From a virus, in UHGV virus genome UHGV-1362809: a DNA stretch of 64,000 nt. One strand, written 5' to 3'. Every line of letters begins with the position of its first letter. The first letter of the stretch is position 1. Shown one piece after another: positions 9,201 through 48,731 of this stretch. Made by a program: the position numbers and the translations under genes. Under the pieces are notes generated by a model. The model was not told the origin of the DNA. It did no database searches and was given only the letters and a program-made list of their open reading frames with translations.

Positions 9201-10147
9201 TATTTATTTTCCATTTTTTCTATTAGGTGTTTATCGCAAATAACACAGGCATCCGAATCAATATAGGCAGCATAGTCCATAAGGTGGCCACATTTATTAA
9301 AGGATACTCCTATGTCATACTCCTTATTTACCCCTTTGTGTCTCTCATTTAACTGCATACGGTTTTCAGAATCATTAAAGTTTCTGTACAGTGTATCTGC
9401 CCTGTAGTAAATATTAAAAAGTTTATCCCACATTTCTACGGACTCTCTCTTTCTAAAAAGAGCTAAAAACTTTAAAAAAGTGGAACGATGAGGATAAAAA
9501 TTGCCTACTATTTTATTAGTTTCCTGCTTATAATTATTACCATGCAAAAAAGACCCACACTGTTTAAAGAAAAAAGATGCATTATAAGCTTTTTTCATTT
9601 TTTCAAAGTCTATCTGTCCTTGGATATATTTTTGTACAAAGTCCTCTGATAGGATAGACGTAATATTAAAATGTATTTGAGGGTATAAAGATACTATACT
9701 TTTTATATGTCCGTCCCAAGTATCAAACATCTTTTTTGTATGAAATCTGCCCAATGTATCAAAAGATGTTAAAATCCATAAGTTAGATTTGTCCTTAAAT
9801 AGTTTTAGCACTTCATAAAGGTCTTCGCACTTACCAATAGTCATGGTAGCATAAATCCAGACTTGTCTTACTATTCCTTCGTTGTATAGCTGCGCCGTTT
9901 TTTCCATCAGTCTAAAAAATTTATTTTTTATAGAAGGAGTATTCAACTGACCTTGAAAAAACTCCCCACCAAGATAGGATAACACATCATATTCTTTGTA
10001 AATACTCAAATCACTAATTTTATTAAGGGCATCATCTAAAGCTTGTTCTTTAAGTTTATCGTCTGTATGAGTATTATTTTTTCCTAAATAACAAAAGGAA
10101 CACTTAGAATTGCATTCTTGCCATAATTCAAATTGCAGTTGTTTCAT
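9200..10147 (-). CDS. Radical SAM protein, paralog 2 of 4
   Basis: CNSKCSFC. LGGEFF. TSFDTLGRFH. C-terminal CGHLMDY...CVICDKH. GGAGGAAG SD upstream of the ATG. Confidence 0.7.
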   Translation of the reverse strand: MKQLQFELWQECNSKCSFCYLGKNNTHTDDKLKEQALDDALNKISDLSIYKEYDVLSYLGGEFFQGQLNTPSIKNKFFRLMEKTAQLYNEGIVRQVWIYATMTIGKCEDLYEVLKLFKDKSNLWILTSFDTLGRFHTKKMFDTWDGHIKSIVSLYPQIHFNITSILSEDFVQKYIQGQIDFEKMKKAYNASFFFKQCGSFLHGNNYKQETNKIVGNFYPHRSTFLKFLALFRKRESVEMWDKLFNIYYRADTLYRNFNDSENRMQLNERHKGVNKEYDIGVSFNKCGHLMDYAAYIDSDACVICDKHLIEKMENK

Positions 10148-32728: not shown

Positions 32729-32779
32729 TTTAACTCTCCATACTTTGTTTAGAGGTGGAGTATAAACTCCACCTCTTAT

Positions 32780-35533
32780 TTAATCTATATCATCGACAAT
32801 TTTGGAAGTACGTCTAAATTTAACGTCCTTACCAGTTCTGTCACTATATTCGTCCTCGTACTTCGTAATGTTATCGGAAATACGTTGACGTTCCTTAGCC
32901 TTATCAATCGACTCTTTTAAACGTTTGATAATATCAGGATTTGATTTACGCCTGTTCAAACCAGATTGTTTTTTACTAAGCTGTTGTTTACGTTTTGTCA
33001 GTCGGTCGTCGAAGTCCTTCTTCTTTTCTTCCGTTACACGGTTGAATTTAGAAGGTTTTCCTTCCTTATTTTTGTACTTGTTTTCAAAGGTTTGGATTTG
33101 TTTTATAAGGTTACCCTTATCCTTTGTCATCTTTTTCTGTACTTTGTTGTCAACATCATCTTCCTCATCTTCTTCAACGTCAAGGTCATAGTCTGGCTCT
33201 TTTTTAAATTCTTTTTGTTGACGTTTTTTACCAGCCTCTTTTATATTTTTTGGCAACTTTTCAAGCTTAGATTCCTTATCTTCTTGCTCTTGCACCCATT
33301 CATTTTCAGGAACATTACCTTTAAGAAACTTTTTCAGATTAAAAGCCCGTTCGTAATCGTCACCAGATTCCATAACAGGTTTGAACTTCTCCATTATGTC
33401 AGTGATTTCCTCAGGAACTTCAATACCCCGTTTATCAAGATTCTTTTTTACGTCAGACATTTTTTCAACAGCGTCCTTTAAAGTATCTAAATCATCAGGG
33501 TCTATCTCATTAAGAGCGTCTTTAATTGGTTGTATGTAGGCGTCCTTCAATTCGTCATCAAGTTTCTTTAATTCCTTTTTAGTTTCTTCCTTAGGCTTTT
33601 CTTCCTTAACAGGTTTTTCTTCTTCATAAGGGTCTTTACCTTCGGAAATAAGTTTTCTTGATTCCTCTATCTTTTTAGGGTCTCCCTTATAGGGCTGTAC
33701 CCCTAATTTGTTACGGGCGTTTTGTTCCTTTGTAACACGTCTAATTTCATCATTATTTACCATTAGCCCCTGCAAGTGGGTTTCACCCTCAGGAGTACGA
33801 AGTATTAAATCTCCTCTACCTTTTAACTGACGAGCAGACTGCATATCTGCGGCACCTGCCGCGTTTTTAGTCAATCTACCTGCTAAAACGTGGCTGGCAT
33901 TATCCCACAGTTTTGTATCTTTCAAGTCCTGACCCTGTGGGTTTTGAGTCATTGTTATTGTATGAACGCCAGAGGATCTTGATTCCTGACCAAGAGTAGC
34001 ATAAAGACTTGCTATTTTATCGTAAAAGTCTGTTTTATTTTCCTTGTCATATCGCTTTATCTCGGTCAACATACCGCCTAATTCATCGGTAACAATAGCC
34101 ATTTGAGGTAATTTTTTATCAGGGTGTTTTTTATTCCACGTCTGTACGTCTTCTATTCCCTCTTTTTCAAACAGCGCGTTTCTATCACGCATTTCTTTAA
34201 CAATTTGTTTAAGGGTTTTGTACAAAGCTTCTGGGTCTTGACCACCTCTGATAGGAGGAGTACGAAGAGAAGGACTATCTGAAAATGATTTAAACGACAA
34301 TCCTTTGTTGTCAATAACAATCATTTGAAATTCGTCAGGTTTATAACGAGAAGAAGCATTAAGTAAGGCTGCTTTTATTGCCTGTGTTTTACCGGAACCC
34401 GACGATCCAAGTACTACCATGTGGGAAAACGAAGGGTCGTTTAGATTTAAAGCCTCCACACCATCATCACCCATACCCAACAATAACTGCACGGAATCAG
34501 GGTTTTTCTCTTGTACTTTATCTAACTTATCACTCAAAGTATTATAAGATAAGGATACGTCTTTATTCGGAAAAATAATTTCGTACTCGTTTTTTGACCC
34601 CAATTTTTTACGAATTGTTGGGGTGGGGTATATTTCTACCTGTTCTCTTTTTCCATCTGAATGTACAATTTCCGTTGTATATGATAAGGTATTAGACAAA
34701 TCGTCAGCCAACTTTTTTAAGGATCTTAAATCAGAGGGAGTACCTTTATAGTCATAAACAGTGGAGAAACCATTATTATTACCTGCTTTAAAATCTCCTG
34801 TCAATCCATTTTTAGATAATATGTCACCTATTTCCTGTTCATAGTCGGAAATCTGTTCCTTTTGTTTATCAGATACATCCTTAACTTTTTCCTCAACGTG
34901 CAAAGGCTTAGCCAATGTATCTTTATTAAAGGACTTATATTCTTTTTCACCTAAGTCTGTCGGTTTTAAAGGAGGTAAGGATTCAGAAAAGTCCTCTTCC
35001 TCCGTGTCATCTACCACAGAGTCACCTTTAACGTTTTTACCTTTGGCATCAGCAGGAGTAAACTTACCACTATCGTAATCATTAACAAGAACATTTATCT
35101 TGGAGTCAGAAAATTTACGCACACGAGCCAGTTTATTTAATTCCGGGTCGTCTATGTCACTCATAGCCTTAGTTAAAGCTGCACGATAACGAGTTTGTGC
35201 GTCTCCTTCCGATTTAGGAATGGAGTTAAATATTCTATCAGCCTCTGTCAACATATCTTTAATTTTAGGATTGTTTTCAAAGTACTTGGCTAGATTTTCT
35301 CTGGTATTCTGTTCGTCATTACCAAACATTACGGCTTTTCTGAACTTAGCATAATCAGCTGGAGTCATACCCATTGTATTTTCAGCAGGCTTTTGGTACT
35401 TGTAGTCAGAATCAACTATAGAACCATTCTTAAGCACTTTTTTCTTAGACTTTTTTGGATTACGACCCATTATACTTTTGAGAATATCAAAAAATCCTGA
35501 CTCCTCGCTATAGGTACGATTATTATCTGACAT
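32780..35533 (-). CDS. FtsK/SpoIIIE-family P-loop ATPase-domain protein with a ~300-aa K/E/D-rich C-terminal tail
   Basis: HMVVLGSSGSGKTQ (Walker A) ... MIVIDNKG ... LPQMAIVTDELGGML (Walker B) ... SGVHTITMTQNP...RGDLIL match the FtsK core order. The start is revised to the ATG at 35533 (MSDNN, GGAG 7 nt upstream); the listed 35545 is TTG. Confidence 0.6.
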   Translation of the reverse strand: MSDNNRTYSEESGFFDILKSIMGRNPKKSKKKVLKNGSIVDSDYKYQKPAENTMGMTPADYAKFRKAVMFGNDEQNTRENLAKYFENNPKIKDMLTEADRIFNSIPKSEGDAQTRYRAALTKAMSDIDDPELNKLARVRKFSDSKINVLVNDYDSGKFTPADAKGKNVKGDSVVDDTEEEDFSESLPPLKPTDLGEKEYKSFNKDTLAKPLHVEEKVKDVSDKQKEQISDYEQEIGDILSKNGLTGDFKAGNNNGFSTVYDYKGTPSDLRSLKKLADDLSNTLSYTTEIVHSDGKREQVEIYPTPTIRKKLGSKNEYEIIFPNKDVSLSYNTLSDKLDKVQEKNPDSVQLLLGMGDDGVEALNLNDPSFSHMVVLGSSGSGKTQAIKAALLNASSRYKPDEFQMIVIDNKGLSFKSFSDSPSLRTPPIRGGQDPEALYKTLKQIVKEMRDRNALFEKEGIEDVQTWNKKHPDKKLPQMAIVTDELGGMLTEIKRYDKENKTDFYDKIASLYATLGQESRSSGVHTITMTQNPQGQDLKDTKLWDNASHVLAGRLTKNAAGAADMQSARQLKGRGDLILRTPEGETHLQGLMVNNDEIRRVTKEQNARNKLGVQPYKGDPKKIEESRKLISEGKDPYEEEKPVKEEKPKEETKKELKKLDDELKDAYIQPIKDALNEIDPDDLDTLKDAVEKMSDVKKNLDKRGIEVPEEITDIMEKFKPVMESGDDYERAFNLKKFLKGNVPENEWVQEQEDKESKLEKLPKNIKEAGKKRQQKEFKKEPDYDLDVEEDEEDDVDNKVQKKMTKDKGNLIKQIQTFENKYKNKEGKPSKFNRVTEEKKKDFDDRLTKRKQQLSKKQSGLNRRKSNPDIIKRLKESIDKAKERQRISDNITKYEDEYSDRTGKDVKFRRTSKIVDDID

Positions 35534-35584
35534 TGTATACTCCAATATATAAAGTAATACTGTTATTATTATAAAATTATTTTA

Positions 35585-35614
35585 GGGGTGACAGTGCGTA
35601 AACACCGTCACCCC
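35585..35614 (-). terminator. GC-rich stem-loop, a probable intrinsic terminator or attenuator between the 159-aa gene and the FtsK-like gene
   Basis: ggggtgacagtg-CGTAAA-caccgtcacccc (12-bp stem with one mismatch), followed on the minus strand by an A/T-rich run. Confidence 0.45.
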
Positions 35615-35621
35615 CATCAGC

Positions 35622-36101: not shown

Positions 36102-36632
36102 TTATTTTACCTTTTCAAAGGAAATAAGATTTTCTAATCTAAAAGACCTAAATGCAGGAGGATCTAATTTAGTATCTACAACTTTGACTACATTAGGGTT
36201 GGACTTAATTGGTTTGCCCGATTTAGAACCTTTAAACATATAGTCAGCTACATATTCAGGAGATAAAGAACCGTACATGATACGAGTTTTACCATCCAAT
36301 TTCTTGAATTTTATTTTATAGGTTCCTTTTTTAAAGGCTTCCGTTATTTTGCGTTTGGTCAAAGCCTGCTTACGAATGTTGGAAAATACCTTTTTGGCTC
36401 TGTCGGCACCACTAAGGGGCTTAGACTTAACCTTAGCATTTTTAACATTTTTAGCATTTAAAGCCCTTGTTTTCAACATCTTAGCACGTTTCAACCATTT
36501 AGCATCTTTACCATACTTAGAGTGAGGATGCTCTTTAATATATTTAATTTGTTGCGTAGGGGTTAAAGCTTTAAAAGATTCTTCACTTAAACCTCTTGAT
36601 GCTATACACATCAATCTGTCTAATAGTTTCAT
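36102..36632 (-). CDS. Paralog family B member (conserved N-terminal ~55-aa module, basic C-terminus)
   Basis: N-terminus LDRLMCIASRGLSEESFKALTPTQQIKYIKEHPHSKYGKDAKWLKRAKMLKTR. Nucleotides 36481-36550 are ~90% identical to 40811-40880. Confidence 0.5.
   Translation of the reverse strand: MKLLDRLMCIASRGLSEESFKALTPTQQIKYIKEHPHSKYGKDAKWLKRAKMLKTRALNAKNVKNAKVKSKPLSGADRAKKVFSNIRKQALTKRKITEAFKKGTYKIKFKKLDGKTRIMYGSLSPEYVADYMFKGSKSGKPIKSNPNVVKVVDTKLDPPAFRSFRLENLISFEKVK
36468..36632. repeat. Dispersed direct repeat (5' module of a family B gene)
   Basis: Nucleotide-level similarity to 40757..40996. Confidence 0.6.
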
Positions 36633-36645
36633 TCCCGCACCTATA

Positions 36646-37071
36646 TTAAACTAAATCTTTGTACTTTTTATTTATAAAAGATATAACGTCCTTTACATCT
36701 TTATCATACATCGCAGTATATACTAAATGATCCATATAGTACTTACTTCTGGAGTCGCTAAGTTTGTCAGCTAATTTCCAGTCTTCATTGTCAATAGCCT
36801 GTTTCTCAGCTTCCAACTTTTTGATATAAATTTTTATTTCACGTTTGGTGTCGTCAGCTAGCTTATTAAGGGCTTTTGAAAACCCATCAACTGGTTTAAC
36901 CTTGAGCGCATACTTAGGGTCTTTTGCAAAACGAGAATGAGGACGGTCTTTAATATATTTTTTACGCTGAGATTCTTTCATACCGCCCCAAGTACCGTCA
37001 GAAATACCACGAGATTCCTCTACTTCGGGTTTTATACCAGCAACAGTTTCTAATCTATCTAAAGCTTTCAT
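36646..37071 (-). CDS. Paralog family B member
   Basis: N-terminus MKALDRLETVAGIKPEVEESRGISDGTWGGM...KYIKDRPHSRFAKD. Nucleotides 36901-37071 are ~85% identical to 44941-45113. Confidence 0.5.
   Translation of the reverse strand: MKALDRLETVAGIKPEVEESRGISDGTWGGMKESQRKKYIKDRPHSRFAKDPKYALKVKPVDGFSKALNKLADDTKREIKIYIKKLEAEKQAIDNEDWKLADKLSDSRSKYYMDHLVYTAMYDKDVKDVISFINKKYKDLV
36907..37071. repeat. Dispersed direct repeat (5' module of a family B gene)
   Basis: Near-identical blocks with 44949..45113, including ccaagtaccgtcagaaataccacgagattc and ttctaatctatctaaagctttcat. Confidence 0.7.
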
Positions 37072-37082
37072 TGTATTTTACC

Positions 37083-38210
37083 TTATACTAAAAATTGTGT
37101 TCTAAACAGGCGAGTCAACATCCAGGAACTTGTAAGTCTTACAGAGCTATTAGTGGAGGGCGTAATAGCAACACTAAGAACACCAGCACTACTTGTTCTA
37201 ACTAAGTTATCTTTAATTTTTGACAGGTTTTCATCAATATATTTACCTGCTTCATTCATTTTTTCTCTGATATGTCCAGTACGGTCAACTTCTAAGCTCG
37301 TTGACGCTCCCGTAAAGTTGAAGGCACTCATACCCTCAGCTAATGCCCAAGCAGAAAGGGCTTCGTACTCTGCACATTTCAAAAGCATATATTCCAAATA
37401 CTTAGGAAGTTGTTGCAATGACCAACCAGTCAAAATAGGAGGAGCGGAATTAATACGAGCTAACCCCAACAGTAAGAAGCAGCACAGTTCTTGGTCAGTA
37501 AATCTCAGGTTTGGATTGATGTCATAATTGCGAGCCTTATCCATAACACGCTTTAATGCTGCTACATACATAACCGTCTTTGTAGTGCATACATAAACCA
37601 TGTGGAATTCTGTATTTATAGGATTTGTAGGAGATGAGTATTTCCAAGTAACAACAAATGGGTAAGACCCTATATTTACAACCTGTTTTTGAATTTTAGG
37701 AATAACCACACCAGCATTGTAATCTACAATGGTACTGTTATTTAATTTACGAGTAGTAAAGTGCGCTGGGTCTGAGTCGGAGTGCAACAGCGTTCCATTT
37801 TCGTCTGTCAATGTGATTGAAAAGTTTGAACACCCGTCAGGAAGTATAATCATATCTGAAAATAAATCAGACGACATCATTATACTGGAGGAATCAAATA
37901 TAGGAGCTTCACCGTCTAATAATACTGTAAAAGTATCCGTATTTTGATATTGTTTACCATTTACCGTAGCTCTCCAAATTAAAGAGTACTTGGAGTCAGG
38001 TTGCACTGGACAATCTTCTGGTAAAGTAAAAGTAGCGATCCACTGCTCAGGGTGGTCTATATTTTGAAATGCTATACCATTTATAACTTGGTTGTTTTCA
38101 TAGTCTAGGACAGTCCAAGTCGGTGAATCCTTGAATACTAAAACATCTTGGTCAATAAAAACAGTAGTAGCTGTAGTGGGTTGACCCCTTACAACATTGT
38201 TCAGCTGCAT
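37083..38210 (-). CDS. Hypothetical virion-module protein (375 aa)
   Basis: GGAG SD. Preceded by two stem-loops. No motif recognised. Confidence 0.45.
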   Translation of the reverse strand: MQLNNVVRGQPTTATTVFIDQDVLVFKDSPTWTVLDYENNQVINGIAFQNIDHPEQWIATFTLPEDCPVQPDSKYSLIWRATVNGKQYQNTDTFTVLLDGEAPIFDSSSIMMSSDLFSDMIILPDGCSNFSITLTDENGTLLHSDSDPAHFTTRKLNNSTIVDYNAGVVIPKIQKQVVNIGSYPFVVTWKYSSPTNPINTEFHMVYVCTTKTVMYVAALKRVMDKARNYDINPNLRFTDQELCCFLLLGLARINSAPPILTGWSLQQLPKYLEYMLLKCAEYEALSAWALAEGMSAFNFTGASTSLEVDRTGHIREKMNEAGKYIDENLSKIKDNLVRTSSAGVLSVAITPSTNSSVRLTSSWMLTRLFRTQFLV

Positions 38211-38302
38211 ATTATATTCTCCTACATTTTACTGCATATATACTACACCAGTGGGGAGGATATTTCACCTCCCCACTTACCGCCCTAATAAAATGGCTAA
38301 AC

Positions 38303-38878
38303 TTAGGGCGATATTCTGTTTTTAACTAAAGTTTCCAACCTACTCATACAATTAAACAAACGTCCCACTTTGCCGACAAAAGTTTTTCTCCCTTTTTCAT
38401 TTCTGTCGCTAACTACTCCATCACGGGAGCTTAATCTTTGAATTGAACAATCTGGTTTTCCCCTATTGTGTATCAGATGAACGTTATCAACTGTATCCTT
38501 TATAAGATTAACAAAATTAGAATAAGGCTCACGTCTTGGGCGTTTATTTTTTACGGGACCCCTCCTACCAGACTTCTTACTTTTGATGTGCTTAAAACTT
38601 TTTTTGCACTTATCTCCTCCGCCTTTACCTAGATAACCAAGCATAGGCTTTTTATCTATATCCAACACTACACACCAATCAGGATGTCTTTTTCTAAATT
38701 TAACACATTCTTCAAACTTAGAGGAGGGATGCTTTTTTAAGTATTCTATTAAGTAATGAGGATTCTCTCTACATTTCTTAGTAAATATTTCTTGTGTAAT
38801 AAAAGATATACACTTTATATCATAGCTATAGGATACTTCTAAGTACATAGGATTTTCTCCCGTTAAGGTTGTAGTCAA
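38303..38878 (-). CDS. Hypothetical basic protein (191 aa), possibly a distant family B relative
   Basis: YLKKHPSSKFEECVKFRKRHPDW resembles the K(E/D)HP(H/S)SK(F/Y) core of family B. Confidence 0.35.
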   Translation of the reverse strand: MTTTLTGENPMYLEVSYSYDIKCISFITQEIFTKKCRENPHYLIEYLKKHPSSKFEECVKFRKRHPDWCVVLDIDKKPMLGYLGKGGGDKCKKSFKHIKSKKSGRRGPVKNKRPRREPYSNFVNLIKDTVDNVHLIHNRGKPDCSIQRLSSRDGVVSDRNEKGRKTFVGKVGRLFNCMSRLETLVKNRISP

Positions 38879-39525
38879 CCAACAGCTACGGGATTACCAG
38901 TAGGATTTGGATTAAAAATTGCGTTAGTTTCCCCTGTAAAAGGAGTACAACGCTTTTTGAAAAGATTTACATCTTTACTTTTAAGTTGAATAGCCTTATC
39001 TCTGCCGTCATTAACAATGCAACACAGATGTTTTCCCTGTAAATCTGGTGTTTTACTAATACCTACTAAACTTCCAGGAGAAACAATGTATTCTGCATTG
39101 GCGTATTTAAACTTCTTTTTACGACAGCCACTAAACGTAAACCAATCATAATCATCCTGCTTAACCGAGGCAGTTTCAACTTCCTGCACGTCAGACGCCA
39201 TAATACGAACAGGGGTTAATGGGGCTTCCATTTGAGCGACTCTGATTGCTAAATCTTCGTCACTAATAGCAGACATTCCTTCACCAAACTTTTGTTTTAA
39301 CAACTCGTCATTTTTAATTGACTGCTGTAGTTGCTGACACCAATTATGAAAATTATTAATTCCAAAACCAACGTCTATCCCCGAATATATATTCTGAACA
39401 AGTTGAATGCCCAGCGGGTTCGTAAGAAGATAATGTTTAATAGCCTCTACAACACCATTGGTTTTTTCCTCAGGTGTAATTAGCTGTGCGTCTAAGCACG
39501 CATATACTTTTTCTAATTCTTTCAT
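38875..39525 (-). CDS. Hypothetical protein (216 aa)
   Basis: ORF with a 4-nt overlap. Confidence 0.4.
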   Translation of the reverse strand: MKELEKVYACLDAQLITPEEKTNGVVEAIKHYLLTNPLGIQLVQNIYSGIDVGFGINNFHNWCQQLQQSIKNDELLKQKFGEGMSAISDEDLAIRVAQMEAPLTPVRIMASDVQEVETASVKQDDYDWFTFSGCRKKKFKYANAEYIVSPGSLVGISKTPDLQGKHLCCIVNDGRDKAIQLKSKDVNLFKKRCTPFTGETNAIFNPNPTGNPVAVG

Positions 39526-39959
39526 TCTAACCCCGTATAACTCAAACGACCTTTTAACAATGCCAAGGCAGTGCCAAGCTTTATTGAAACTTCATCTAAT
39601 GACGCATTTGTGCCACGGTCTTCTGCATCAAAACTATCTAGTTCTTGGTGCAATTCGTTGACTAACTTGTATAAATTACGAGCCATTTGTGTGCTTTCTT
39701 TGGTGGATCTACACTCCATTACAGGAGCTTCAAAATCCTCTGTCTTGAACACATCGTCCACCTCATTAAGCTGTTCACGATGACTTCCCATATAATACTG
39801 TTCCACAACTTGGTCAAACAGTCCTTTAGACCATACGTCAGCGATGCGGTCGAATAATTCATGGTCAGACTCAAACACTACACTGGAAGTTTTCCAATGA
39901 TAGCGTTTAGCACTGATATAAATTGCAAACCACCTGCTTAATACCTCTTTAACAGTCAT
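39522..39959 (-). CDS. Hypothetical protein (145 aa)
   Basis: ORF only. Confidence 0.4.
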   Translation of the reverse strand: MTVKEVLSRWFAIYISAKRYHWKTSSVVFESDHELFDRIADVWSKGLFDQVVEQYYMGSHREQLNEVDDVFKTEDFEAPVMECRSTKESTQMARNLYKLVNELHQELDSFDAEDRGTNASLDEVSIKLGTALALLKGRLSYTGLE

Positions 39960-40048
39960 TTTTTTAACTCCTTTTGTGGTTTCCCGTTTATTTGCAGGGC
40001 TGATAAATACTCTTAGACAGTGTAAATACCAGCCCTACGCTTTACCCT

Positions 40049-40996
40049 TTAATAATTAGAGTCTACTTCATCTAAAGCAGTATGCCAGTTTTCTTCTTCC
40101 AAAATAGATTTAAAAGCTTCTAATTTGCCAGAAGACATTTTCTTTAAGATAGAATCTAAAGCTTTAATACCAGCTACACCAGTAGATGTATCATTAGGAT
40201 CCAACTTTGAATCTAATTTTGTATACTCTTTAAATAAATTTTCAGCCCAAGCTCTATCCTTTGCATTATAATGACAGGTACCTCTATCTTTATACCAGTC
40301 AACTTGTTTCTGCGCCCTTTTAATCTGTGCGTCATTAGGTTTAAAGGACTTAATTTTTTCAATAGCTTTACTGGCGTCATTACTTGGCTTGTCGGCAACC
40401 CCAGCCTTTTTAATAAGATCATTTCTTAGTTTATCAATATCGTAGTCAACTCCATAGGTATCTCCAAACCAATCATACGGAGTATAGTGTCCCATCCCTC
40501 CAAGATCTTCAACAATGCTGTCACTTATATTGTTATCTAGATAGTCTGTAAATTCCTCAAATGCCTTATAGCTTTTCTTTGATCCAGCTTTTGCCCCTTT
40601 ATTTCTCTTTTCTTCTTCAAACATATTCTGTTGAAGCTGTTTCAATTTATCAAAGTCAACGTTTTTAAAAGCACGACATACTTTATTTTTACTATTACCC
40701 AGAATACTTTTTAAGTTCGTAGATGATTTAGAAACAGGTTTAGAAATAGGCTTTACTGCTCCTTTTTGAGTATTACCTTTCTTTTGGTTAAGCATGCGAG
40801 TTTTTAGCATCTTAGCACGTTTCAACCACTTTGGATCTTTACCATACTTAGAATTAGGATGCTCTTTAATATATTTAATTTGTCCAGTAGGAGATAGTGC
40901 CTTAAAGTTTTCTTCCGATAGACCACGAGCAGTCTCCTCATAAGGCATCTTTATACCTGCTAATACCTCTAATCTATTTAAAATTTTGTTAATCAT
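40049..40996 (-). CDS. Paralog family B member (longest; its N-terminus bridges both sub-types)
   Basis: LNRLEVLAGIKMPYEETARGLSEENFKALSPTGQIKYIKEHPNSKYGKDPKWLKRAKMLKTR. Confidence 0.5.
   Translation of the reverse strand: MINKILNRLEVLAGIKMPYEETARGLSEENFKALSPTGQIKYIKEHPNSKYGKDPKWLKRAKMLKTRMLNQKKGNTQKGAVKPISKPVSKSSTNLKSILGNSKNKVCRAFKNVDFDKLKQLQQNMFEEEKRNKGAKAGSKKSYKAFEEFTDYLDNNISDSIVEDLGGMGHYTPYDWFGDTYGVDYDIDKLRNDLIKKAGVADKPSNDASKAIEKIKSFKPNDAQIKRAQKQVDWYKDRGTCHYNAKDRAWAENLFKEYTKLDSKLDPNDTSTGVAGIKALDSILKKMSSGKLEAFKSILEEENWHTALDEVDSNY
40757..40996. repeat. Dispersed direct repeat (5' module of a family B gene)
   Basis: Similar to 36468..36632. Confidence 0.6.
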
Positions 40997-41065
40997 TTTT
41001 CCTCTATTTTAATTAGTCTGATACTGACCCTTCTACATAATTTAGAAGAAGGGTCAGTTAAGAAA

Positions 41066-41878
41066 TTAAACTATAGCAGAAGTATAGTTACCAACGTCAC
41101 CCATGGAGTTACGCTGACGAATTAGGCTTTCCAAACGGTCAAAGAACTCAGGATGATTACCATACAACACACGCATATAGTTAAGCATCTTATCCAAGTT
41201 TTCGGTTTGAATCATAGCAATTTCACCGCATAGGTCAGAGTCACCACTAAAGGCAACGGCTTCAACAACCTGTTTTGGCTCAATTTTAATCGCTGCATTG
41301 GTTTCACGGTCGATAACGATGTCAGAAGACGCCATAATACCGAAGCTTACTTTACCTTCTTTATCATTATAAAATGCAACGTAGTCTTTTTCCATTGGTT
41401 TAATATCTTCAATCATTGAACTTAGAGTGGAAATACTACGGGACTTACGAGCCTGCAGGATTGCATTGTAATCGTCGTCTGATGTTTGAATCAAACGAGC
41501 CTGTTCACCTTCACCTACTTTTTTCCAAATTGAGTTATCTTCTTCGCTCATAAACACGTTAGAAGCAACAACTTTCATTTGTTTGGTGTTGGTTTCATTG
41601 TAGGCTTTTGAAGTAACATTAGCCTTAACAATCATTTTAACGTGCGGTTTGTAGGAAAAGTCTTTAGAATTGTAACGACAAATTGAATTTGGAACAACAC
41701 TCATTTTGTTTTCCGTCAAAGCCGCAATAGCTTCCATGTACTGCTCATTAGAATAGTCACGAGTAGCGTGTGAGGCAATAATTTGGAAGGCGTTACCACC
41801 AACGGGGGTTATTTTCTGAATAGCCAAGTCGCAATCATACGAGGACGCAACTTCTAGTACACTGTCTAATTTATTCAT
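41066..41878 (-). CDS. Hypothetical virion-module protein (270 aa)
   Basis: ORF only. Confidence 0.4.
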   Translation of the reverse strand: MNKLDSVLEVASSYDCDLAIQKITPVGGNAFQIIASHATRDYSNEQYMEAIAALTENKMSVVPNSICRYNSKDFSYKPHVKMIVKANVTSKAYNETNTKQMKVVASNVFMSEEDNSIWKKVGEGEQARLIQTSDDDYNAILQARKSRSISTLSSMIEDIKPMEKDYVAFYNDKEGKVSFGIMASSDIVIDRETNAAIKIEPKQVVEAVAFSGDSDLCGEIAMIQTENLDKMLNYMRVLYGNHPEFFDRLESLIRQRNSMGDVGNYTSAIV

Positions 41879-41939
41879 TTCATTCTCCGAATTGCAATTA
41901 GGAACTTATAGGTTGTGTACACCTATATAATTAAAATTA

Positions 41940-42740
41940 TTAAAAACAACATTTGTTGACATTAGAGCTACTGCTAGGAACAGCCCCATTCACCAAATTA
42001 AACTTAATATCCTTATCAAGTAGTGACTGCATAACAGTTTTTAAATCTACATTGTAAGGAACTAAAACTTTTAACAAACGTGCAGAAGTATGCGATAAAA
42101 AGTTTGGAATATTCATTGTATATCTATCAGACCCCAAACTTGATATGCTACTACTAGCAACAGAATCAACCAAACGAAGACCGTATCGTGCATTTGTCCA
42201 AAAACCTTCAGCAGTTAGGTCAATAAAATTTTGCGGTGTTAAACCGATTCCTTTGCATACATATCTCATTAATTGAAAAGTATGATTTGCTAAAGTAGAA
42301 CCGCCTTCAACAAAAACAGTTTTGCCACTGTTGTTCGTTGTTATGCACTCATCCCCAGAGCAAGTCTTGTCAATTATTTTGGCAAGTTCAAAAGGTTCTT
42401 CTTCGGAACCCGTTTTAACAACTTGGTAAATACCATTCTGGGTAGTGTCAGTCTGTTTTGCAAATAGCACTCTATCTCCCACAACAGGATTAACCTTGTC
42501 TACTACCAAGGAACCATTAACTTTTGCCCTTGCCGTAGTATAGCCCCCTATATATTCCAAATCAAAATTTTTTGTTGTACAGTATTGTACGGGGTCAAAA
42601 TGTGGAAAATTCTCTATATCATAAACACCAATTAACAACAGTCTGCCGTTTACTTCATTTGGATTGGCAACATTAAATCCATCCCAAAACGAATAAATAC
42701 TGGTTGCACTAACGGTGCTATAAAAAACTGGTAATGTCAT
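41940..42740 (-). CDS. Hypothetical virion-module protein (266 aa)
   Basis: ORF only. Confidence 0.4.
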   Translation of the reverse strand: MTLPVFYSTVSATSIYSFWDGFNVANPNEVNGRLLLIGVYDIENFPHFDPVQYCTTKNFDLEYIGGYTTARAKVNGSLVVDKVNPVVGDRVLFAKQTDTTQNGIYQVVKTGSEEEPFELAKIIDKTCSGDECITTNNSGKTVFVEGGSTLANHTFQLMRYVCKGIGLTPQNFIDLTAEGFWTNARYGLRLVDSVASSSISSLGSDRYTMNIPNFLSHTSARLLKVLVPYNVDLKTVMQSLLDKDIKFNLVNGAVPSSSSNVNKCCF

Positions 42741-42761
42741 TTTATATTCCCTATGTTAAAT

Positions 42762-43670
42762 TTATTCTTTATTTACCCAGTCTAGTATTATATGTTGAGG
42801 TATTCCTATGGCTCTTGATAAAATATCAGCTGACTGTTCGGATAAAATTATATCTTCTTTTAAGGAAAGTTTAATACCATCCTTAAATACTTGCACCCTA
42901 AAATACTTTTTAAAAGGAGTAGGTATTTTAGAAGCCACTGTTTTATCTAACCCCTTTATACTCAATCCAGATTTTGTAATTTTACAAGTGCAGTTATTAA
43001 GTTTAGTATCTAATAAACCTTCCTCTAATAAAGAGGCTTTTATATTAGCTAAGGAATAACTACGCAGATCCATATAATTTACAAAAGGAAAAACTAAATT
43101 TTTGTGCAGACTATAGTACTTTTTATTATCCACAGTATATACTAATAAAGATATAACTGGATAGTTGTAGCCTTTTACGTCCACGTCATACATATAATAA
43201 GCACAACAAGAACGATACTTTTTATCTATAATGGTGCATACGTCTATACATTTAATATCTGTACAAATTTGATTTAGTAGTTTTGTTATTGAGTCCTTTT
43301 TTGGCACACAACACTTGGATAAACTATCATTTATCTTTCGCCCGATTATATCTAGAGCTTCAGTTAGCTGAGTTTTTAACTTTTTGTCAGCTTTATTCCT
43401 CGTCGAACTATCGCTCTTAAGACTGTTTAACTGTTGAAGCATAGAATAATACTGAGGAATAAATTCCTGCAACGAATTTAGTAATTGAAAGTACTGTACA
43501 AGATAATCAGGTTTGTAAGTCTTATTAAATGATTTAGCAAATTTAACGTGCCAATCAAGTTTATCTAGCTTTTCATTGTAGGAATCTATCTGTTTTATTA
43601 AAGACACAACAATTTTTAGGGACTTCGTAAGAAATCTCTTCATCTCATGTAAGTCACCAAACTGTTCCAT
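42762..43670 (-). CDS. Hypothetical protein (302 aa)
   Basis: ORF only. Confidence 0.4.
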   Translation of the reverse strand: MEQFGDLHEMKRFLTKSLKIVVSLIKQIDSYNEKLDKLDWHVKFAKSFNKTYKPDYLVQYFQLLNSLQEFIPQYYSMLQQLNSLKSDSSTRNKADKKLKTQLTEALDIIGRKINDSLSKCCVPKKDSITKLLNQICTDIKCIDVCTIIDKKYRSCCAYYMYDVDVKGYNYPVISLLVYTVDNKKYYSLHKNLVFPFVNYMDLRSYSLANIKASLLEEGLLDTKLNNCTCKITKSGLSIKGLDKTVASKIPTPFKKYFRVQVFKDGIKLSLKEDIILSEQSADILSRAIGIPQHIILDWVNKE

Positions 43671-43673
43671 AAA

Positions 43674-44273
43674 CTATTTCAACTCCATTAAGTATTTGTT
43701 TAAATCATTTTCTATCTTTTTAAGAACTTCCTTGATATAAACACCATGGTTTTGCAACAAAGTACTTAGTTTTATATTTAGGCGGTTAGAATCTTTTTTA
43801 TCCAGCTCCAGCTTCCCCCACCGTTTAACGTCCTCTAATTCTTCAGCCAAATTTTGAATTATATACCGAATAGAATTATAAACAATATCATTTTGTATAT
43901 AATCGACTTGCGTACTCAGATCTGAAATGGAACGAATAGCGTCCATTAATTCTACCGCTTTAGTCACAAGTCCTGTGTAGACAAAACTGTTATTACCAAG
44001 AAAAGGATTCTTTAAATAAGTTTTTTCCGCAACAGGTATTAAGGAGATTGTAGTTTTAAGCATTGTATGTAAAGCTTTTAGTGTTACAGCATCAGACTTT
44101 ACGTCAACACCTTTCTTCTTTAATTTTTTGATTAGCTTTTGATAATCACTGTCAAACTGCTTCATTTCTGAAGAAATATCGGAGTACCTTTTTTGCGCAT
44201 TTTCTACTGACTTGTTGCGGTGGTTTTTATGTTTGGCACCTGTATTTTCTTCGCCTAATGCTTTTTTAACCAT
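43674..44273 (-). CDS. Hypothetical protein (199 aa), helical/charged
   Basis: ORF only. Confidence 0.4.
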   Translation of the reverse strand: MVKKALGEENTGAKHKNHRNKSVENAQKRYSDISSEMKQFDSDYQKLIKKLKKKGVDVKSDAVTLKALHTMLKTTISLIPVAEKTYLKNPFLGNNSFVYTGLVTKAVELMDAIRSISDLSTQVDYIQNDIVYNSIRYIIQNLAEELEDVKRWGKLELDKKDSNRLNIKLSTLLQNHGVYIKEVLKKIENDLNKYLMELK

Positions 44274-44441
44274 CGTGTTTCTCCTGTCTAAAGCTGTTGC
44301 AGTTTAAGTATCTCAATAAACTATTTACCTACCTTGAGTTAAATTAAAGGGGAGCAGGTGCTATAGGCATTACAAATACCTGTTCTATAGCCTACCCCCC
44401 CCACTTATAGTACTTGGTACACTTACCTATTCCATTTTTAC

Positions 44442-45113
44442 TTAGTCATAACGCTTTAAATAATGAAGAAGTTTCTCATGGGAACCATTTTTTGCTGATG
44501 CACCACGGGAGCGGGTTGACTTATTATTCATTTCTGGATGTTTATCATAAAGACTTTCATCGTCTTTTGGATATTTTGCGGCTCTTGATCCAAAACCAAA
44601 TAACTTTTTATAAACTTTATTTAGTTTAGCACTGCCCTCTAGATCTTCTGTACCGTATGCAACATTAGACATACCTTTAGATAATAAACCTAATAAAAGA
44701 GCATCATTAAGGTTTTTATTAGAAGAGTCAAACTTTTTAAAGTAAGCTTTAATTTCTCCAACAGATTTATCGTCTAAATCTTTATTTTCGATGTCTTTTA
44801 TTATATCAAAGGCTTTAGACCAAGTTTTGTCATCAAAGTCAAAACCACAACGCTTAAAATCCACTGTTTTTTCAATTTCATCTCTTGTCAAGGGTCTAAA
44901 CTTATTGTTCGTTGGAGTATTTTTAACTTTTTTAACAGGTTTATTAGATTTACCGCCTAAGTCTTTGGCAAAACGAGAATGAGGATGTTCTTTAACATAT
45001 TTCCTACGTTCAGAACTATTCATACCATTCCAAGTACCGTCAGAAATACCACGAGATTCTTCGATTTCAGGTTTAACACCTGCTACTACTTCTAATCTAT
45101 CTAAAGCTTTCAT
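44442..45113 (-). CDS. Paralog family B member
   Basis: MKALDRLEVVAGVKPEIEESRGISDGTWNGM...KYVKEHPHSRFAKD. Confidence 0.5.
   Translation of the reverse strand: MKALDRLEVVAGVKPEIEESRGISDGTWNGMNSSERRKYVKEHPHSRFAKDLGGKSNKPVKKVKNTPTNNKFRPLTRDEIEKTVDFKRCGFDFDDKTWSKAFDIIKDIENKDLDDKSVGEIKAYFKKFDSSNKNLNDALLLGLLSKGMSNVAYGTEDLEGSAKLNKVYKKLFGFGSRAAKYPKDDESLYDKHPEMNNKSTRSRGASAKNGSHEKLLHYLKRYD
44949..45113. repeat. Dispersed direct repeat (5' module of a family B gene)
   Basis: Similar to 36907..37071. Confidence 0.7.
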
Positions 45114-45252
45114 TTTAAGTCCTTTGCATAAAAATCTATTTTATGTTATTATATATTACCGCAACACTTGCACCTATACTTTAAATTATCGTGCGAACCT
45201 TCGTAGAAACCATTTATGTAATTATAAATTTTACAGACTTCCGACCATAAAA

Positions 45253-46038
45253 TCAAAATAATTTACTTAAATCCCTAAACATAGGTATATTCTTTTCGTT
45301 GGTAGCCATTAGGAACGCAGGAGAAGAAACACTGGAATTCTCAAAGGGAAGAATGTTGTGAGTGTTCCAACAGGCGAGTTTTCCATCAATTATTTTGTAC
45401 GTTGGATCTCCCTTTACAATATGTTCGCATCCTCCCTTTTTAAGACTTGCTCCACAAATACTGCAAGTATAGTCTTCGCAGTAGGCACCCATTGATGTGC
45501 CAGGACGTTTTCCTGACAGAATCTCATTAACCAAAATTGGGTCTTTGGTACGGTCAAACCCAGTCAAAAGTATAACTTTCCATAAATTGCCTTTAAACCC
45601 TTTTAACGGACGCATAACAGCATCAAAAATAACACCTTTGGCTTTTGTAAAGTCTTTATTTTGGTGTTCCGCATAACTTGGTTTGCCTCTCCAACCCTTG
45701 TAAGCAATCATACCAATATCAGTATTAAAATCTGTCAGGGAAGAAAAAGGAAAGGCAACGTTATTACGATTTGGCAAATCGCTGTACATGCAGATTGTAC
45801 TAAGTACAACGTAGTCAGTAACATTAGGAGAAATGCAGTATTTTTCAGCGGCAAATGGTAACCACTGCTGGACATCAATAATGGAGCCTTTTACCTGTTC
45901 GTGTTCCTCTAAATCGTTAGAAAGAACCTCTAACTTACCTTGTTTTATTACTTGGTGCATTTCAATAGTAGAGGAAGCGTGTTGACAATCACAATGTACC
46001 TCGTACAATCCGTCGCTGTTTAGATCAAAACAACCCAT
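45253..46038 (-). CDS. Hypothetical Cys-rich protein (261 aa)
   Basis: ORF only. Candidate head-maturation protein by position alone, with no motif support. Confidence 0.4.
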   Translation of the reverse strand: MGCFDLNSDGLYEVHCDCQHASSTIEMHQVIKQGKLEVLSNDLEEHEQVKGSIIDVQQWLPFAAEKYCISPNVTDYVVLSTICMYSDLPNRNNVAFPFSSLTDFNTDIGMIAYKGWRGKPSYAEHQNKDFTKAKGVIFDAVMRPLKGFKGNLWKVILLTGFDRTKDPILVNEILSGKRPGTSMGAYCEDYTCSICGASLKKGGCEHIVKGDPTYKIIDGKLACWNTHNILPFENSSVSSPAFLMATNEKNIPMFRDLSKLF

Positions 46039-46057: not shown

Positions 46058-47416
46058 TTATAATCTTAACATACCTTTAGAAAATCGTTTGGCTTTACCG
46101 TATTTATTCAACCAGTCTTGCACCTGTTCAAACGACCAAAACTCGATATACCTTAAATTATTGTCGGATGCAGTCTTACGTTTTAGTGGATCTCGTGATG
46201 TCCATACCTGTATTGCGTTAGAGTAATAAGTAGTATCCTTATCCACCCAGCTTTGTAGTTGTAATTTGTGAGATTTCTTACGTGGATTATAAGGCTCCCC
46301 ACCGTGAGTCCAACTACCATTATATTCTATGTACAAATCAAACTTTGGTAGATAAAAATCACAACTAAAAGGATATAAATCGGAACGGTACTGTCTTTTT
46401 ACCTGTCTCTTACCAAAACATTTACACAATAGTTTGTACATATCTTCTTCTGGTTGAGAAGTATTAAATGTACCATTTTTACGTTTTGTAGCGTTAGATT
46501 TATACTGATACTCTTCAGTTTTACAATAATTTGTTACACCATATCTTTCTAAGCAAGTTTTTATAGCCTTAGGTTTATTGTTATAATTCTCATCGCCATA
46601 ACGTTGTAGTTTAGTTTGTTTACTCTTTTCCAACAAGTCTTCGTTTTGATAAGGATATTTTACACCATACCGTTCAAAATTTGTAGCCTCTATTCTATCT
46701 ATAAAATTTTCTGTTTTAGAATAATGGTCTTCTCCATACCTATTTTTACAAGTTTGTTGTCGTCTTACCTGTATGTCCTGTTTAAAGTTTTTATCCTTTT
46801 TACAGTGGTTTTTATATGAGTTTAGGCATTTATTCTTAAACTCCTCAACGTGCATAGCACAATCAGCACCATACTTGTCTAATAATGTCTGTTTAGCCTT
46901 TTCATGATTTGTAAAAGTGGCGTCACCATATTTAGACTTTTTGGTTTTTCTACTCTGCTTTTTAAACTGCTTAGTTTTGAAATAGTTATCAGTACCAAAA
47001 TGATCTTGACAGGTTTTCTTATACTTGTCACGAGTGGATTTCAACTGAGCAGGATGTTTTACCCCATACCTTTCTAAACAAAGTTCTTCTCGTCTTGATT
47101 TGGTGTAGTACAAGGAACAACTAACACTACAGCACTCCCTGTATCCTTGTGAAACGTCCATTAATTTATTTCTTTTACCACAATAAGGGCAAAACAATGA
47201 ATCCGCAAAGTTTTTGTCATTTCTATGACGTAAAAAGTACACAAACTCCGACATTGAAAATAAATTCGGAAACTTTAAAGAAAAGGACTTATAATGGTCT
47301 TTATTTACTTTTTGTCTTGATGCGTATTGAACGTCTATAAAGTCCTTGTACCTATTTTTAGCAAACTTTATAGCCCTTTTTACATCTTTCTTTGTATAGT
47401 CTTTCCAATCTTTCAT
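46058..47416 (-). CDS. Free-standing homing-endonuclease-like protein: N-terminal zinc ribbon, about seven ~30-aa L.RYG repeats, and a C-terminal Vsr/DUF559-like PD-(D/E)xK nuclease motif
   Basis: CPYCGKRNK...CCSVSC. The repeats are LERYGVKHP, LDKYGADCA, KNRYGEDHY, FERYGVKYP, LQRYGDENY, LERYGVTNY. C-terminal SCDFYLPKFDLYIEYNGSWTHG resembles D...(n)hIE.nG..wH. Confidence 0.5.
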   Translation of the reverse strand: MKDWKDYTKKDVKRAIKFAKNRYKDFIDVQYASRQKVNKDHYKSFSLKFPNLFSMSEFVYFLRHRNDKNFADSLFCPYCGKRNKLMDVSQGYRECCSVSCSLYYTKSRREELCLERYGVKHPAQLKSTRDKYKKTCQDHFGTDNYFKTKQFKKQSRKTKKSKYGDATFTNHEKAKQTLLDKYGADCAMHVEEFKNKCLNSYKNHCKKDKNFKQDIQVRRQQTCKNRYGEDHYSKTENFIDRIEATNFERYGVKYPYQNEDLLEKSKQTKLQRYGDENYNNKPKAIKTCLERYGVTNYCKTEEYQYKSNATKRKNGTFNTSQPEEDMYKLLCKCFGKRQVKRQYRSDLYPFSCDFYLPKFDLYIEYNGSWTHGGEPYNPRKKSHKLQLQSWVDKDTTYYSNAIQVWTSRDPLKRKTASDNNLRYIEFWSFEQVQDWLNKYGKAKRFSKGMLRL

Positions 47417-47533
47417 TTCATAGCCTTACCGTAACAAGGCGGTAAACAAACCTGTATTTTGTGTTACGGCACAAAAAGGTTAATTACTCCTTTTTAACAG
47501 ATTTGTTTACCATTAAACATTAGTAATTAGAGT

Positions 47534-47809
47534 CTAACAGTATTGCCTTACTCTATCATACACATCTACAACATCAAGACCAAGGGTGGCACAGTCATCG
47601 GCAAAGTCGTCGTCATCATTCAACACATTACCTTTATTATCTAATAGCACAACGGAGGATAACATGCTATTAATTTTTAAAATACCCAGCCAAACTGTGC
47701 CATAAAATCTAAATTGTATGAATCCTTTTTCACGTTCCCAAACAATTTCTTTTGGTTCGTCCTTTGACGTATTAAGGGCAAATGCCAATAACCTATCTAA
47801 CTCTTTCAT
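47534..47809 (-). CDS. Small hypothetical protein (91 aa after start revision)
   Basis: The listed start at 47854 is GTG inside the endolysin 3' end. An in-frame ATG at 47809 (MKELDRLL) follows a GGCGGTG-like RBS. Confidence 0.3.
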   Translation of the reverse strand: MKELDRLLAFALNTSKDEPKEIVWEREKGFIQFRFYGTVWLGILKINSMLSSVVLLDNKGNVLNDDDDFADDCATLGLDVVDVYDRVRQYC

Positions 47810-47843
47810 TATACACCGCCTAATAAATTTTTTTGTATGGACT

Positions 47844-48731
47844 TTAATTTCCACAATTAACCAACTTACGCCATTCCGTCAATTCATAATGAGGTTTATC
47901 CTTAAAGGACGTAAAATCCCCACCCCAAGTTAGCTTTACACCAAATTGCAAACAAATTTCTTGTACAATTTCGTGCAATTCCTCCCATTCAGGACTTTCA
48001 TCATCCCATACCTTTACACCGTCTACTTCCTTAGTAGGAATAGGATACGGTACAACGTCAACTGCCAAACTTGGTTTGTAGTTGTGGGCACTTTCACCAA
48101 AGGAGGCTTTACTATTACCCTTATTTTTAGCCTCTTCCTGAGCCTGCTCCCCTCTATAACCTTCCAAAATAGATATATCTTTATAGAATAACACTTCCTT
48201 AAATACATCTATTAAAGGTTTATGACAGGTAGATAGTATTCTACTACTTTTTTCACTCAATTTATAGGGCGTATTTCTACGATTACACACAAGAAGTCTC
48301 CTAATAATATCTTTATCTTTTATAAAATGTAAATCTATGTCAACGTCCATCGGGTGAGACATAAACGCACCATATTTGTCTAAGTATTGCTCTATATAAG
48401 GTTTATATTGATTATACAAACCAACACAATCCTTTCTAAAGGCAATAGGATCATATATACAAACTTCCCCGTTGTTGTCTAAAACAGAAGATAGTGCTTG
48501 TGCGTCTTTAACACTGTACTTGTATATAAGTTTTTTAAGTTCCTCTTTGTATTCATTAAACTTGATTGCCATACAGTCATTAAAAATTAAGTCCTGTATA
48601 CGAGTCAAAGCCTGTCTAAGTGTTTCACACACCATACTGTATTGAATAGCAATAGAAGGATCTGATTCTTCATATTTTTTTGGCTCTAATACTTCGAGCA
48701 TTTTTATTATTAAATTGCCTGTTAGTTTCAT
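47844..48731 (-). CDS. Endolysin, peptidase M15 (L-alanyl-D-glutamate peptidase / VanY-like zinc peptidase)
   Basis: SAHNYKPSLAVDV (H..6..D zinc motif) and DKPHYEL (D..H.E) are present. Adjacent to the spanin genes. Confidence 0.6.
   Translation of the reverse strand: MKLTGNLIIKMLEVLEPKKYEESDPSIAIQYSMVCETLRQALTRIQDLIFNDCMAIKFNEYKEELKKLIYKYSVKDAQALSSVLDNNGEVCIYDPIAFRKDCVGLYNQYKPYIEQYLDKYGAFMSHPMDVDIDLHFIKDKDIIRRLLVCNRRNTPYKLSEKSSRILSTCHKPLIDVFKEVLFYKDISILEGYRGEQAQEEAKNKGNSKASFGESAHNYKPSLAVDVVPYPIPTKEVDGVKVWDDESPEWEELHEIVQEICLQFGVKLTWGGDFTSFKDKPHYELTEWRKLVNCGN

Follow-up and report, generated by a model that had tools for sequence, protein, structure and literature searches.

Four genes located in the head region of an uncultured, jumbo-type phage (UHGV virus genome UHGV-1362809) encode otherwise unrelated proteins that begin with one and the same N-terminal module. 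The stretch of DNA that was analysed, referred to below as the window, covers 64 kb (64,000 nucleotides) with a G+C content of 34.8%; nearly all of its genes lie on the minus strand, and their content points to the structural region of a large myovirus. The module comprises a leader helix, an acidic linker and a small folded mini-domain. This mini-domain is a conserved phage-specific domain that was previously undescribed, being present neither in Pfam nor in the literature searched, and the module as a whole, judged from its sequence, falls into no known family. It is tentatively proposed here that the module serves the incorporation of its carriers into the capsid, acting in head assembly as a common device for docking or targeting. 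By its likely function, it belongs with systems of the capsid-targeting or propeptide type, with a new conserved mini-domain that is specific to phages. The family genes and their parts are as follows.

44442-45113, minus strand: p223 (223 amino acids, subtype A), first gene downstream of the prohead protease gene
44952-45113, minus strand: N-terminal module of p223, residues 1-54, with leader helix, acidic linker and mini-domain
40049-40996, minus strand: p315 (315 amino acids, subtype B)
40772-40996, minus strand: module of p315 with the basic helix of subtype B, KWLKRAKMLKTRMLN, residues 1-75
36646-37071, minus strand: p141 (141 amino acids, subtype A)
36910-37071, minus strand: N-terminal module of p141, residues 1-54
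36102-36632, minus strand: p176 (176 amino acids, subtype B), devoid of acidic linker
36441-36632, minus strand: module of p176 with the basic helix of subtype B, residues 1-64
36123-36350, minus strand: cargo domain of p176, a WYL_2/Sm-like SH3 beta-barrel, residues 95-170
38303-38878, minus strand: p191, possible degenerate fifth member, matching around EYLKKHPSSKF only

As claimed in the original prediction, the four open reading frames (ORFs) have an N-terminal module in common and unrelated C-termini. The shared part is limited to the first ~50-75 residues. A profile of these N-termini recovers exactly four ORFs from the six-frame translation of the window (E 1.5e-32 to 3.6e-41), and the module begins at Met1 in all of them. 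The six pairwise BLASTP comparisons of the proteins are all significant (E 2e-9 to 3e-27), with alignments limited to the first 51-125 residues, and the C-terminal parts without the module do not match each other (E > 0.01). Two subtypes can be distinguished: A, with p141 and p223, and B, with p176 and p315, which possess an additional basic helix (KWLKRAKMLKTRxLN). All four were thought to begin with LDRLE.vAGIKpE.EESRGiS; the module is indeed present in each of them, but p176 lacks the AGIKPEVEE stretch. A fifth member had also been suspected. The corresponding protein, p191, matches only in part, with E 0.068 for the profile of the four N-termini and E 0.0012 for a broader profile of the motif, which does not establish membership; it is possibly a degenerate member of the family.

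The anatomy of the module was deduced from an alignment of 26 homologues and from AlphaFold2 models. The first part is an amphipathic leader helix of 10-12 residues starting from Met1 (M-K-x-L-D/N-R-L-E-V-x-A-G), predicted with low confidence, in which L4 and L7 are invariant in the window family. The second part is a disordered acidic linker that usually ends with E-[VI]-E-[ET]-[AS]-R-G. Its length is variable: the linker is absent in p176, has 7-25 residues in most members and reaches ~80 in P0028 (Cys-rich insert). The predicted local distance difference test score (pLDDT) of the leader and linker is below 50. The third part is the mini-domain of ~30 residues, modelled as three short helices forming a compact unit (pLDDT 80-88), whose signature is [IL]-S-[DE]-x-x-[WF]-x-x-[LM]-[ST]...K-x-Y-[IV]-K-x-H-P-x-S-[KR]-[YF]-A-K; within it, Y and P never vary, and H and S hardly do. 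For example, the model of p141 shows a leader helix (residues 3-10), a disordered segment (8-20) and helices at 25-30, 33-42 and 47-50 (pLDDT ~80-86). In distant members, a leader-like segment directly abuts the W-helix (e.g., MKLVSRLKLTAESWFDTL...). The linker carries a [VI]-E-E|[AS] junction in p141 and p223 and E-E-T-A in p315, and p176 has none; in subtype A and most homologues, the [VI]-E-E|[SA] junction lies 19-25 residues from the start. The other head proteins of the window were searched for the same acidic junction in order to infer the specificity of the protease, and none was found.

The sequences that follow the module, hereafter the cargos, diverge as had been described. However, their description as basic or low-complexity tails holds only in part, since p176 ends in a WYL/Sm-like beta-barrel and all four cargos have orthologues in other phages. 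The cargo of p176 scores above the Pfam gathering threshold for WYL_2 (PF10902) and has the fold of an Sm-like SH3 barrel; it is a predicted nucleic-acid-binding barrel of the WYL/Sm-like type. WYL_2 and phrog_1086, both on this cargo, are the only families retrieved by Pfam and PHROG scans of the family. The cargo regions of p315, p141 and p223 are conserved and match no known family; weak matches of p223 to Mu gpT and major head proteins (E ~0.006-0.02) were judged spurious. The p223 cargo is conserved in P0004 and P0008, the p315 cargo in P0005, P0013 and P0027, and the helical p141 cargo in P0003 and P0028. The module is also present on an orthologue of every window cargo in other phages, in many cases as the other subtype (P0008, P0013, P0028, P0033). 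Thus, P0008 carries a subtype B module on the p223 cargo (48% identity, E 5e-44), P0013 a subtype A module on the p315 cargo (E 4e-34), and P0033 combines the p176 cargo (WYL_2) with BRCT. Other cargos include leucine-rich repeat (LRR)-like repeats, WYL_2 with BRCT, topoisomerase IB (P0047, with P0068 as a further candidate) and Lys/Ala/Pro-rich tails. Repeats of the 'IKNPSEKVQLEAV' type, which constitute the cargo of a motif-bearing protein on the IMG/VR contig L007 (9950-11356), also occur at 15-1523 of the window, in one of its very few plus-strand ORFs.

The relationship of the modules is also visible at the DNA level, as two pairs of direct repeats.

36919-37075: D1, copy 1, pairing with 44961-45117 over 157 nucleotides at 83% identity
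44961-45117: D1, copy 2
36469-36593: D2, copy 1, pairing with 40800-40924 over 125 nucleotides at 82% identity
40800-40924: D2, copy 2

These dispersed repeats had been announced as 85-90% identical or even near-identical. They are real and direct, but their identity is 82-83%. The proposal that they arose by recent duplication or gene conversion is supported by a test on conserved degenerate codons, with an expectation drawn from the codon usage of the window: identical codons number 32/37 in the D1 pair (15.7 expected, P<5e-5) and 26/39 in the D2 pair (17.3 expected, P=0.003), an excess suggesting that the copies were duplicated or homogenised recently. On the near-identical contig L001, the first codons of the p223 orthologue match p315 and not p223. 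Taken together, the codon data, the subtype swaps and the L001 start indicate that the module has been exchanged among paralogues while its association with a cargo was kept. In the same way, the low synonymous divergence and the swapping of subtypes among cargo orthologues show a module kept homogeneous by recombination or gene conversion. Maintenance of the association despite such exchange argues for a function.

Alternatively, the shared 5' ends could have no common function and be relics of duplication or illegitimate recombination having spread a start region, i.e., a ribosome-binding site and the first codons. Both the low synonymous divergence and the short patch that the p223 orthologue of L001 has in common with the start of p315 would be expected in that case. 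However, the same module is kept on orthologous cargos in phages with no more than 55-69% identity between their structural genes, the mini-domain is conserved on unrelated proteins across distant phages, and the paralogues do not share their upstream non-coding DNA. Such an origin is disfavoured and appears very improbable.

Outside the window, 84 matches were obtained when 1.84 billion representative proteins were searched exhaustively with a profile, whereas word-indexed homologue searches gave very few proteins. The motif is present in 88 of the 90 proteins collected, the two others being false positives without motif, P0039 and the top match, P0002 (4488 amino acids). In most cases, the first copy begins within residues 5-60, and the isoelectric point of most carriers is above 9. 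Among the ~125 distinct copies that were aligned, ~70% are N-terminal, the others being internal, repeated or located at the very C-terminal end; one protein can have up to three copies, and BcepSauron gp075 shows in addition a fourth match that is weak and partial. The carriers are essentially all encoded by large-phage contigs. No relative was found in 185,579 species genomes except on one phage-like contig, nor in alignment scans of genome and metagenome collections. Ten pattern matches in genomes comprised this one real contig and chance matches (Fic-domain, TPR and similar proteins). One outcome named as refuting in the original prediction, a module that is a generic domain occurring in non-viral proteins, is not seen, since the module was not found in cellular genomes save for that contig.

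The mini-domain also remains without a counterpart among described families. The commonest weak Pfam match is DUF7167 (PF23768), obtained for 13 of 66 mini-domain copies (best E 0.0033) with scores of 12.9-18.8 bits, all under the gathering cutoff of 24.4 bits. A Pfam scan of the four family proteins and p191 at E<=1 gave no phiKZ_IP and nothing known beyond WYL_2. No paper was retrieved from the literature with the motif strings or with DUF7167, and a comparative paper on jumbo phages (PMC7824862) yielded no passage on such a motif.

The mini-domain weakly recalls the HMG box, with which it shares the signature W-x-x-[LM]-S-x-x-E-K-x-x-Y and, close to it, K-x-H-P. The mini-domain could be a small HMG-box-like nucleic-acid binder tethering enzymes or basic tails to phage DNA or to the nucleoid; packaging would then be a by-product of attachment to the DNA, and the leader would serve oligomerisation or simply belong to the fold. 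HMG-box proteins make up about 13 of the 18 PDB matches listed for the mini-domain profile (HBP1, BBX, TFAM, SMARCE1, Abf2; E 0.02-1.1), and 4 of 66 members match each of HMG_box and HMG_box_2. Most carriers are very basic, and their Lys/Ala/Pro tails resemble histone H1; fusion partners such as topoisomerase IB, BRCT and WYL (ssDNA-binding in CapW and DriD) act on DNA; a Dps-like gene lies nearby; and several mini-domain copies per protein would suit a binder relying on avidity. However, the HMG matches are all below significance (best PDB E 0.021; E>=0.017 for Pfam HMG_box and HMG_box_2) and cover only 15 of 38 positions, the best PDB matches being confined to the W..LS..EK..Y stretch. Furthermore, the order of 'EHP' and 'W..LS..EK..Y' is opposite to that of real HMG boxes. 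The domain is about half the size of an HMG box, its three short helices being too small for the L-shaped fold, and the 58-residue module model found no match in the PDB with Foldseek. The mini-domain consensus is, by inspection, only weakly basic. A DNA-binding role would also leave unexplained both the leader helix anchored at Met1 and the recurring adjacency to the protease gene. A role of this kind is unlikely.

As had been stated, the family genes are scattered in the capsid region: they lie within a jumbo-phage head module defined by the large terminase, the portal, a phrog_18299 protease and a connector-like gene. The main features of this region are listed below.

60221-63751: large terminase
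57937-59940: portal
47844-48731: endolysin
46058-47416: homing endonuclease-like ORF (phrog_3339)
45253-46038, minus strand: prohead (head maturation) protease homologue (phrog_18299, E 1.2e-70), candidate processing enzyme
41066-41878, minus strand: conserved gene of the head module encoding 270 amino acids (phrog_17573)
37083-38210, minus strand: conserved connector-like structural gene encoding 375 amino acids (PHROG 'head-tail connector')
35583-35616, minus strand: terminator-like hairpin with a 15-bp stem, closing the family gene block
32780-35545: FtsK/SpoIIIE-like ATPase (921 amino acids), directly downstream of the family block

Baseplate and tail-fibre genes are found farther along the window, in which the major capsid protein was not identified. 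The protease homologue has no Pfam match. By tblastn, it shows 37-45% identity to proteases of jumbo phages only (190-270 kb), i.e., P. putida vB_PpuM-Aura, Vibrio GR7B, PaBG, NCTB, Erwinia Y3 and the Burkholderia Sauron group; some of these matches are annotated as 'prohead core protein protease'. This type of protease occurs in 97 of 50,697 phage records, including five Burkholderia records and NCTB. PDB sequence searches with the protease, the 375-aa and the 270-aa proteins gave nothing. A megablast search of the 9.2-kb region against the same 50,697 records gave no match, indicating that there is no close cultured relative, and the 61-aa module had no match in them by tblastn.

Clear motif matches in cultured phages (E <= 3e-3) are limited to BcepSauron, BcepSaruman, BCSR5 and NCTB (BN7874_233), all of them consistent with membership of the group that has this protease; Erwinia phage pEa_SNUABM_5, with a marginal E of 0.6, was set aside. 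The virion proteome of PaBG covers no motif protein (PMC7412058). A motif gene is adjacent to the protease gene in the window and in L001, and such an arrangement is found again in at least two other lineages. In the first, NCTB and the IMG/VR contigs L035, L036 and L041 share an orthologous gene of 423-483 amino acids with an N-terminal motif, located 0-2 genes upstream of the protease gene. In the second, L020, a phage-like contig of 184.6 kb binned as Clostridiaceae, at least four motif genes share ~8 kb, and one of these lies directly upstream of the gene for a protease having 39% identity to that of the window. On L004 and L009, where the portal, 375-aa and 270-aa proteins are 63-69% identical to those of the window, the family genes are scattered among portal, endolysin and structural genes, with a number, order and cargo different from those of the window. 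The more distant L014 and L027 harbour clusters of up to seven motif proteins together with homologues of the 375-aa and 270-aa genes. More generally, homologues of the 375-aa gene are found beside motif genes in L009, L014, L027 and L047, and homologues of the 270-aa gene accompany motif genes in L009 and L027.

The L014 cluster (logan SRR32476544_127552, ~3.4-14 kb) includes seven neighbouring ORFs with the mini-domain, one being a topoisomerase IB fusion of 915 amino acids, and adjoins an Acb1 homologue and an SNF2-type protein of 1640 amino acids; the arrangement of L027 is similar. A search of 43 protease neighbourhoods for other shared N-termini gave few pairs, which are probably full-length paralogues. 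On L039, a 295-kb jumbo contig from IMG/VR, two genes located just upstream of the protease gene (6520-10001) share a different N-terminal segment of ~50 residues (40% identity); they may be full-length paralogues or possess an analogous shared leader.

The module could instead dock to another conserved hub unrelated to the capsid, such as a replication or transcription factory, a chaperone or translocase (e.g., the neighbouring FtsK-like ATPase) or a host protein, its location in the head region being incidental. The ATPase gene next to the family block, the motif genes of L025 lying among RecA, 5'-3' exonuclease and GTP cyclohydrolase genes, and those of L014 and L027 clustering with Acb1 and a giant SNF2 protein would agree with this, as would the unrestricted position of the mini-domain in proteins. 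However, at least four lineages have their motif genes in the midst of structural genes, including those for the portal and the protease, and the L014 and L027 clusters themselves hold homologues of the 375-aa structural gene of the window. No candidate hub was identified either, and docking outside the capsid seems rather improbable.

A docking or targeting role in head assembly is supported by the head-module setting, the adjacency to the protease gene, the start at Met1, the variety of cargos, the mostly basic nature of carriers and their restriction to viruses. Four unrelated cargo proteins each bear the same portable N-terminal module, which, late in infection, could attach them to one conserved partner inside the assembling procapsid, i.e., the scaffold or core, the inner surface of the shell or the protease. 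The cargo would then be packaged and later ejected with the DNA, as for the capsid-targeting sequence (CTS) of T4. The neighbouring prohead protease, if specific for Glu, may cut the acidic linker, for example after ...VEE|S. Such a cut would remove a leader of ~19 residues and leave the mini-domain on the mature protein. Because it is folded, strongly conserved and able to occupy any place in a protein, the mini-domain looks like a retained binding domain rather than a disposable leader. Hence the proposal that the leader and linker could be the processed part and the mini-domain the docking element.

It should be stressed that several observations weigh against this role. Internal, repeated and C-terminal copies of the mini-domain are not explained by a simple cleaved leader and favour a docking domain. 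The p176 protein and its orthologues lack the acidic stretch. An alignment of homologues, recommended as a check in the original prediction, did show that module and cargos are conserved in other phages, but no Glu occurs at a fixed distance from the mini-domain across the ~125 copies. The link with the protease is confounded by the shared ancestry of the phages. Motif genes lie within 10 kb in only 4 of the 43 protease neighbourhoods, and the closest protease relatives in IMG/VR have none within this distance. Furthermore, gp075 of BcepSauron and BcepSaruman is encoded beside tail tube and sheath genes, and the three motif genes of L025 lie among RecA, nucleotide-metabolism and queuosine-type genes. 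The capsid-targeting or propeptide interpretation that was initially put forward is the best supported of the readings, and is sustained in part by the genomic context, the Met1 start and the diverse basic carriers, but fits poorly with the internal and C-terminal copies and with p176, which has no Glu-rich stretch.

A resemblance to the T4 internal proteins IPI-III and to the inner-body proteins of jumbo phages had also been put forward. It is sustained for the architecture but is not accompanied by any sequence relation of the module to T4 CTS or phiKZ inner-body proteins. The T4 internal proteins are diverse basic proteins with N-terminal targeting propeptides of 10-19 residues that are cut after Glu, and the targeting determinants are residues 4 and 7 (PMC9026906). 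As in the CTS-bearing proteins IPI, IPII, IPIII and Alt, a short element starting at Met1 is found here on diverse, mostly basic and fast-varying proteins, with hydrophobic positions 4 and 7 conserved (L4 and L7). In the same way, the genes belong to or adjoin the head block, and the phage encodes a predicted prohead protease of the T4 gp21/phiKZ gp175 type. However, no sequence similarity was detected in the 50,697 phage records, among which T4-like phages should be represented, and no internal-protein family came out of the PHROG scans. The module is also longer (50-60 residues versus 10-19) and contains a folded and strongly conserved mini-domain, which can be internal, repeated or C-terminal.

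The inner-body proteins of phiKZ-type phages and SPN3US (e.g., gp53/gp54) offer a second parallel, with a jumbo setting, families of head paralogues and a related type of protease. Head proteins of SPN3US have propeptides of 20 and 24 residues cut after A-x-E, with Ser preferred at P1' (PMC10052503). More broadly, propeptides of phiKZ-like phages and SPN3US span 20-250 residues and are removed at S/A/G-x-E or A-x-E, Ser being favoured at P1' (PMC10052503). The E-E|S/A junction of the window family would fit a protease with Glu at P1. In phiKZ-type inner-body families, the shared part is the mature domain (Pfam phiKZ_IP), whereas here the N-terminus alone is shared and the mature parts are unrelated. 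Moreover, unlike the phiKZ-like setting, nothing in the window suggests a phage that forms a nucleus. Other small portable tags or mini-domains, which tether arbitrary cargo to the inner face of a shell with the HK97 fold and may be located at either terminus, are the cargo-loading peptides of encapsulins and the coat-binding helix-turn-helix at the C-terminus of P22-type scaffolding proteins. Their sequences differ from the module and the likeness is by analogy only.

Some other features of the window deserve mention. The ORF of the large terminase encodes 1176 amino acids; its PHROG terminase match is split into three pieces and a separate family matches residues 506-663, which suggests that it holds an intein or another insertion. 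Between the endolysin and protease genes (46058-47854) lie the homing endonuclease-like ORF and a small ORF. The metagenome contig L001, 93-98% identical to the window, joins position ~47502 straight to ~46078, pointing to a mobile-element insertion polymorphism at the homing endonuclease site. A Dps/ferritin-like 'DNA binding protein' (phrog_3636) is encoded at 39522-39959, within the head module and beside p315; a PF00210 ferritin gene is also located ~8 kb from the motif protein P0030 on its contig, an unrelated phage contig of 121 kb.

The FtsK/SpoIIIE-like ATPase (32780-35545) has Lys/Glu-rich termini and is separated from the family block by the hairpin at 35583-35616. Other G+C-rich hairpins occupy most intergenic gaps of the module region (e.g., ~41000-41065, 38211-38302, 39960-40048 and 32729-32779), with 12 terminator-like sites versus 5.7 expected from shuffles. 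They could be terminators or RNA-stability elements between late genes. Sigma-70-like promoters are not enriched and no upstream motif common to the family genes was seen. Upstream of the tail-fibre and baseplate genes, five adjoining genes (6578-11966) encode proteins of 271-323 amino acids. Four of them are diverged paralogues (22-28% identity by BLASTP) that form a second paralogue family of the window; the fifth gene, 7426-8241, has no match, and 8229-9200 is likewise not among the matches.

Packaged and injected proteins of jumbo phages, and the way in which they are selected, are known for a few models only (T4, phiKZ, SPN3US, P1). Whatever its function, a mini-domain of 30 residues with ~90 carriers merits definition as a family. 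Going further, the leader and the 'WW...YIKxHPxSKY' mini-domain might constitute a general cargo-loading tag of a mostly uncultured clade of jumbo phages, comparable to encapsulin peptides and directed to a DNA-filled capsid; this extension is possible but doubtful. If it were true, the tag would mark a packaged and injected set including topoisomerase IB, WYL/BRCT DNA-binding proteins, LRR effectors and H1-like DNA-condensing proteins, and the injected proteome of uncultured phages would become predictable from sequence alone. The tag would also help to find new effectors of anti-defence or host takeover, and would provide a handle for loading foreign proteins into phage heads.

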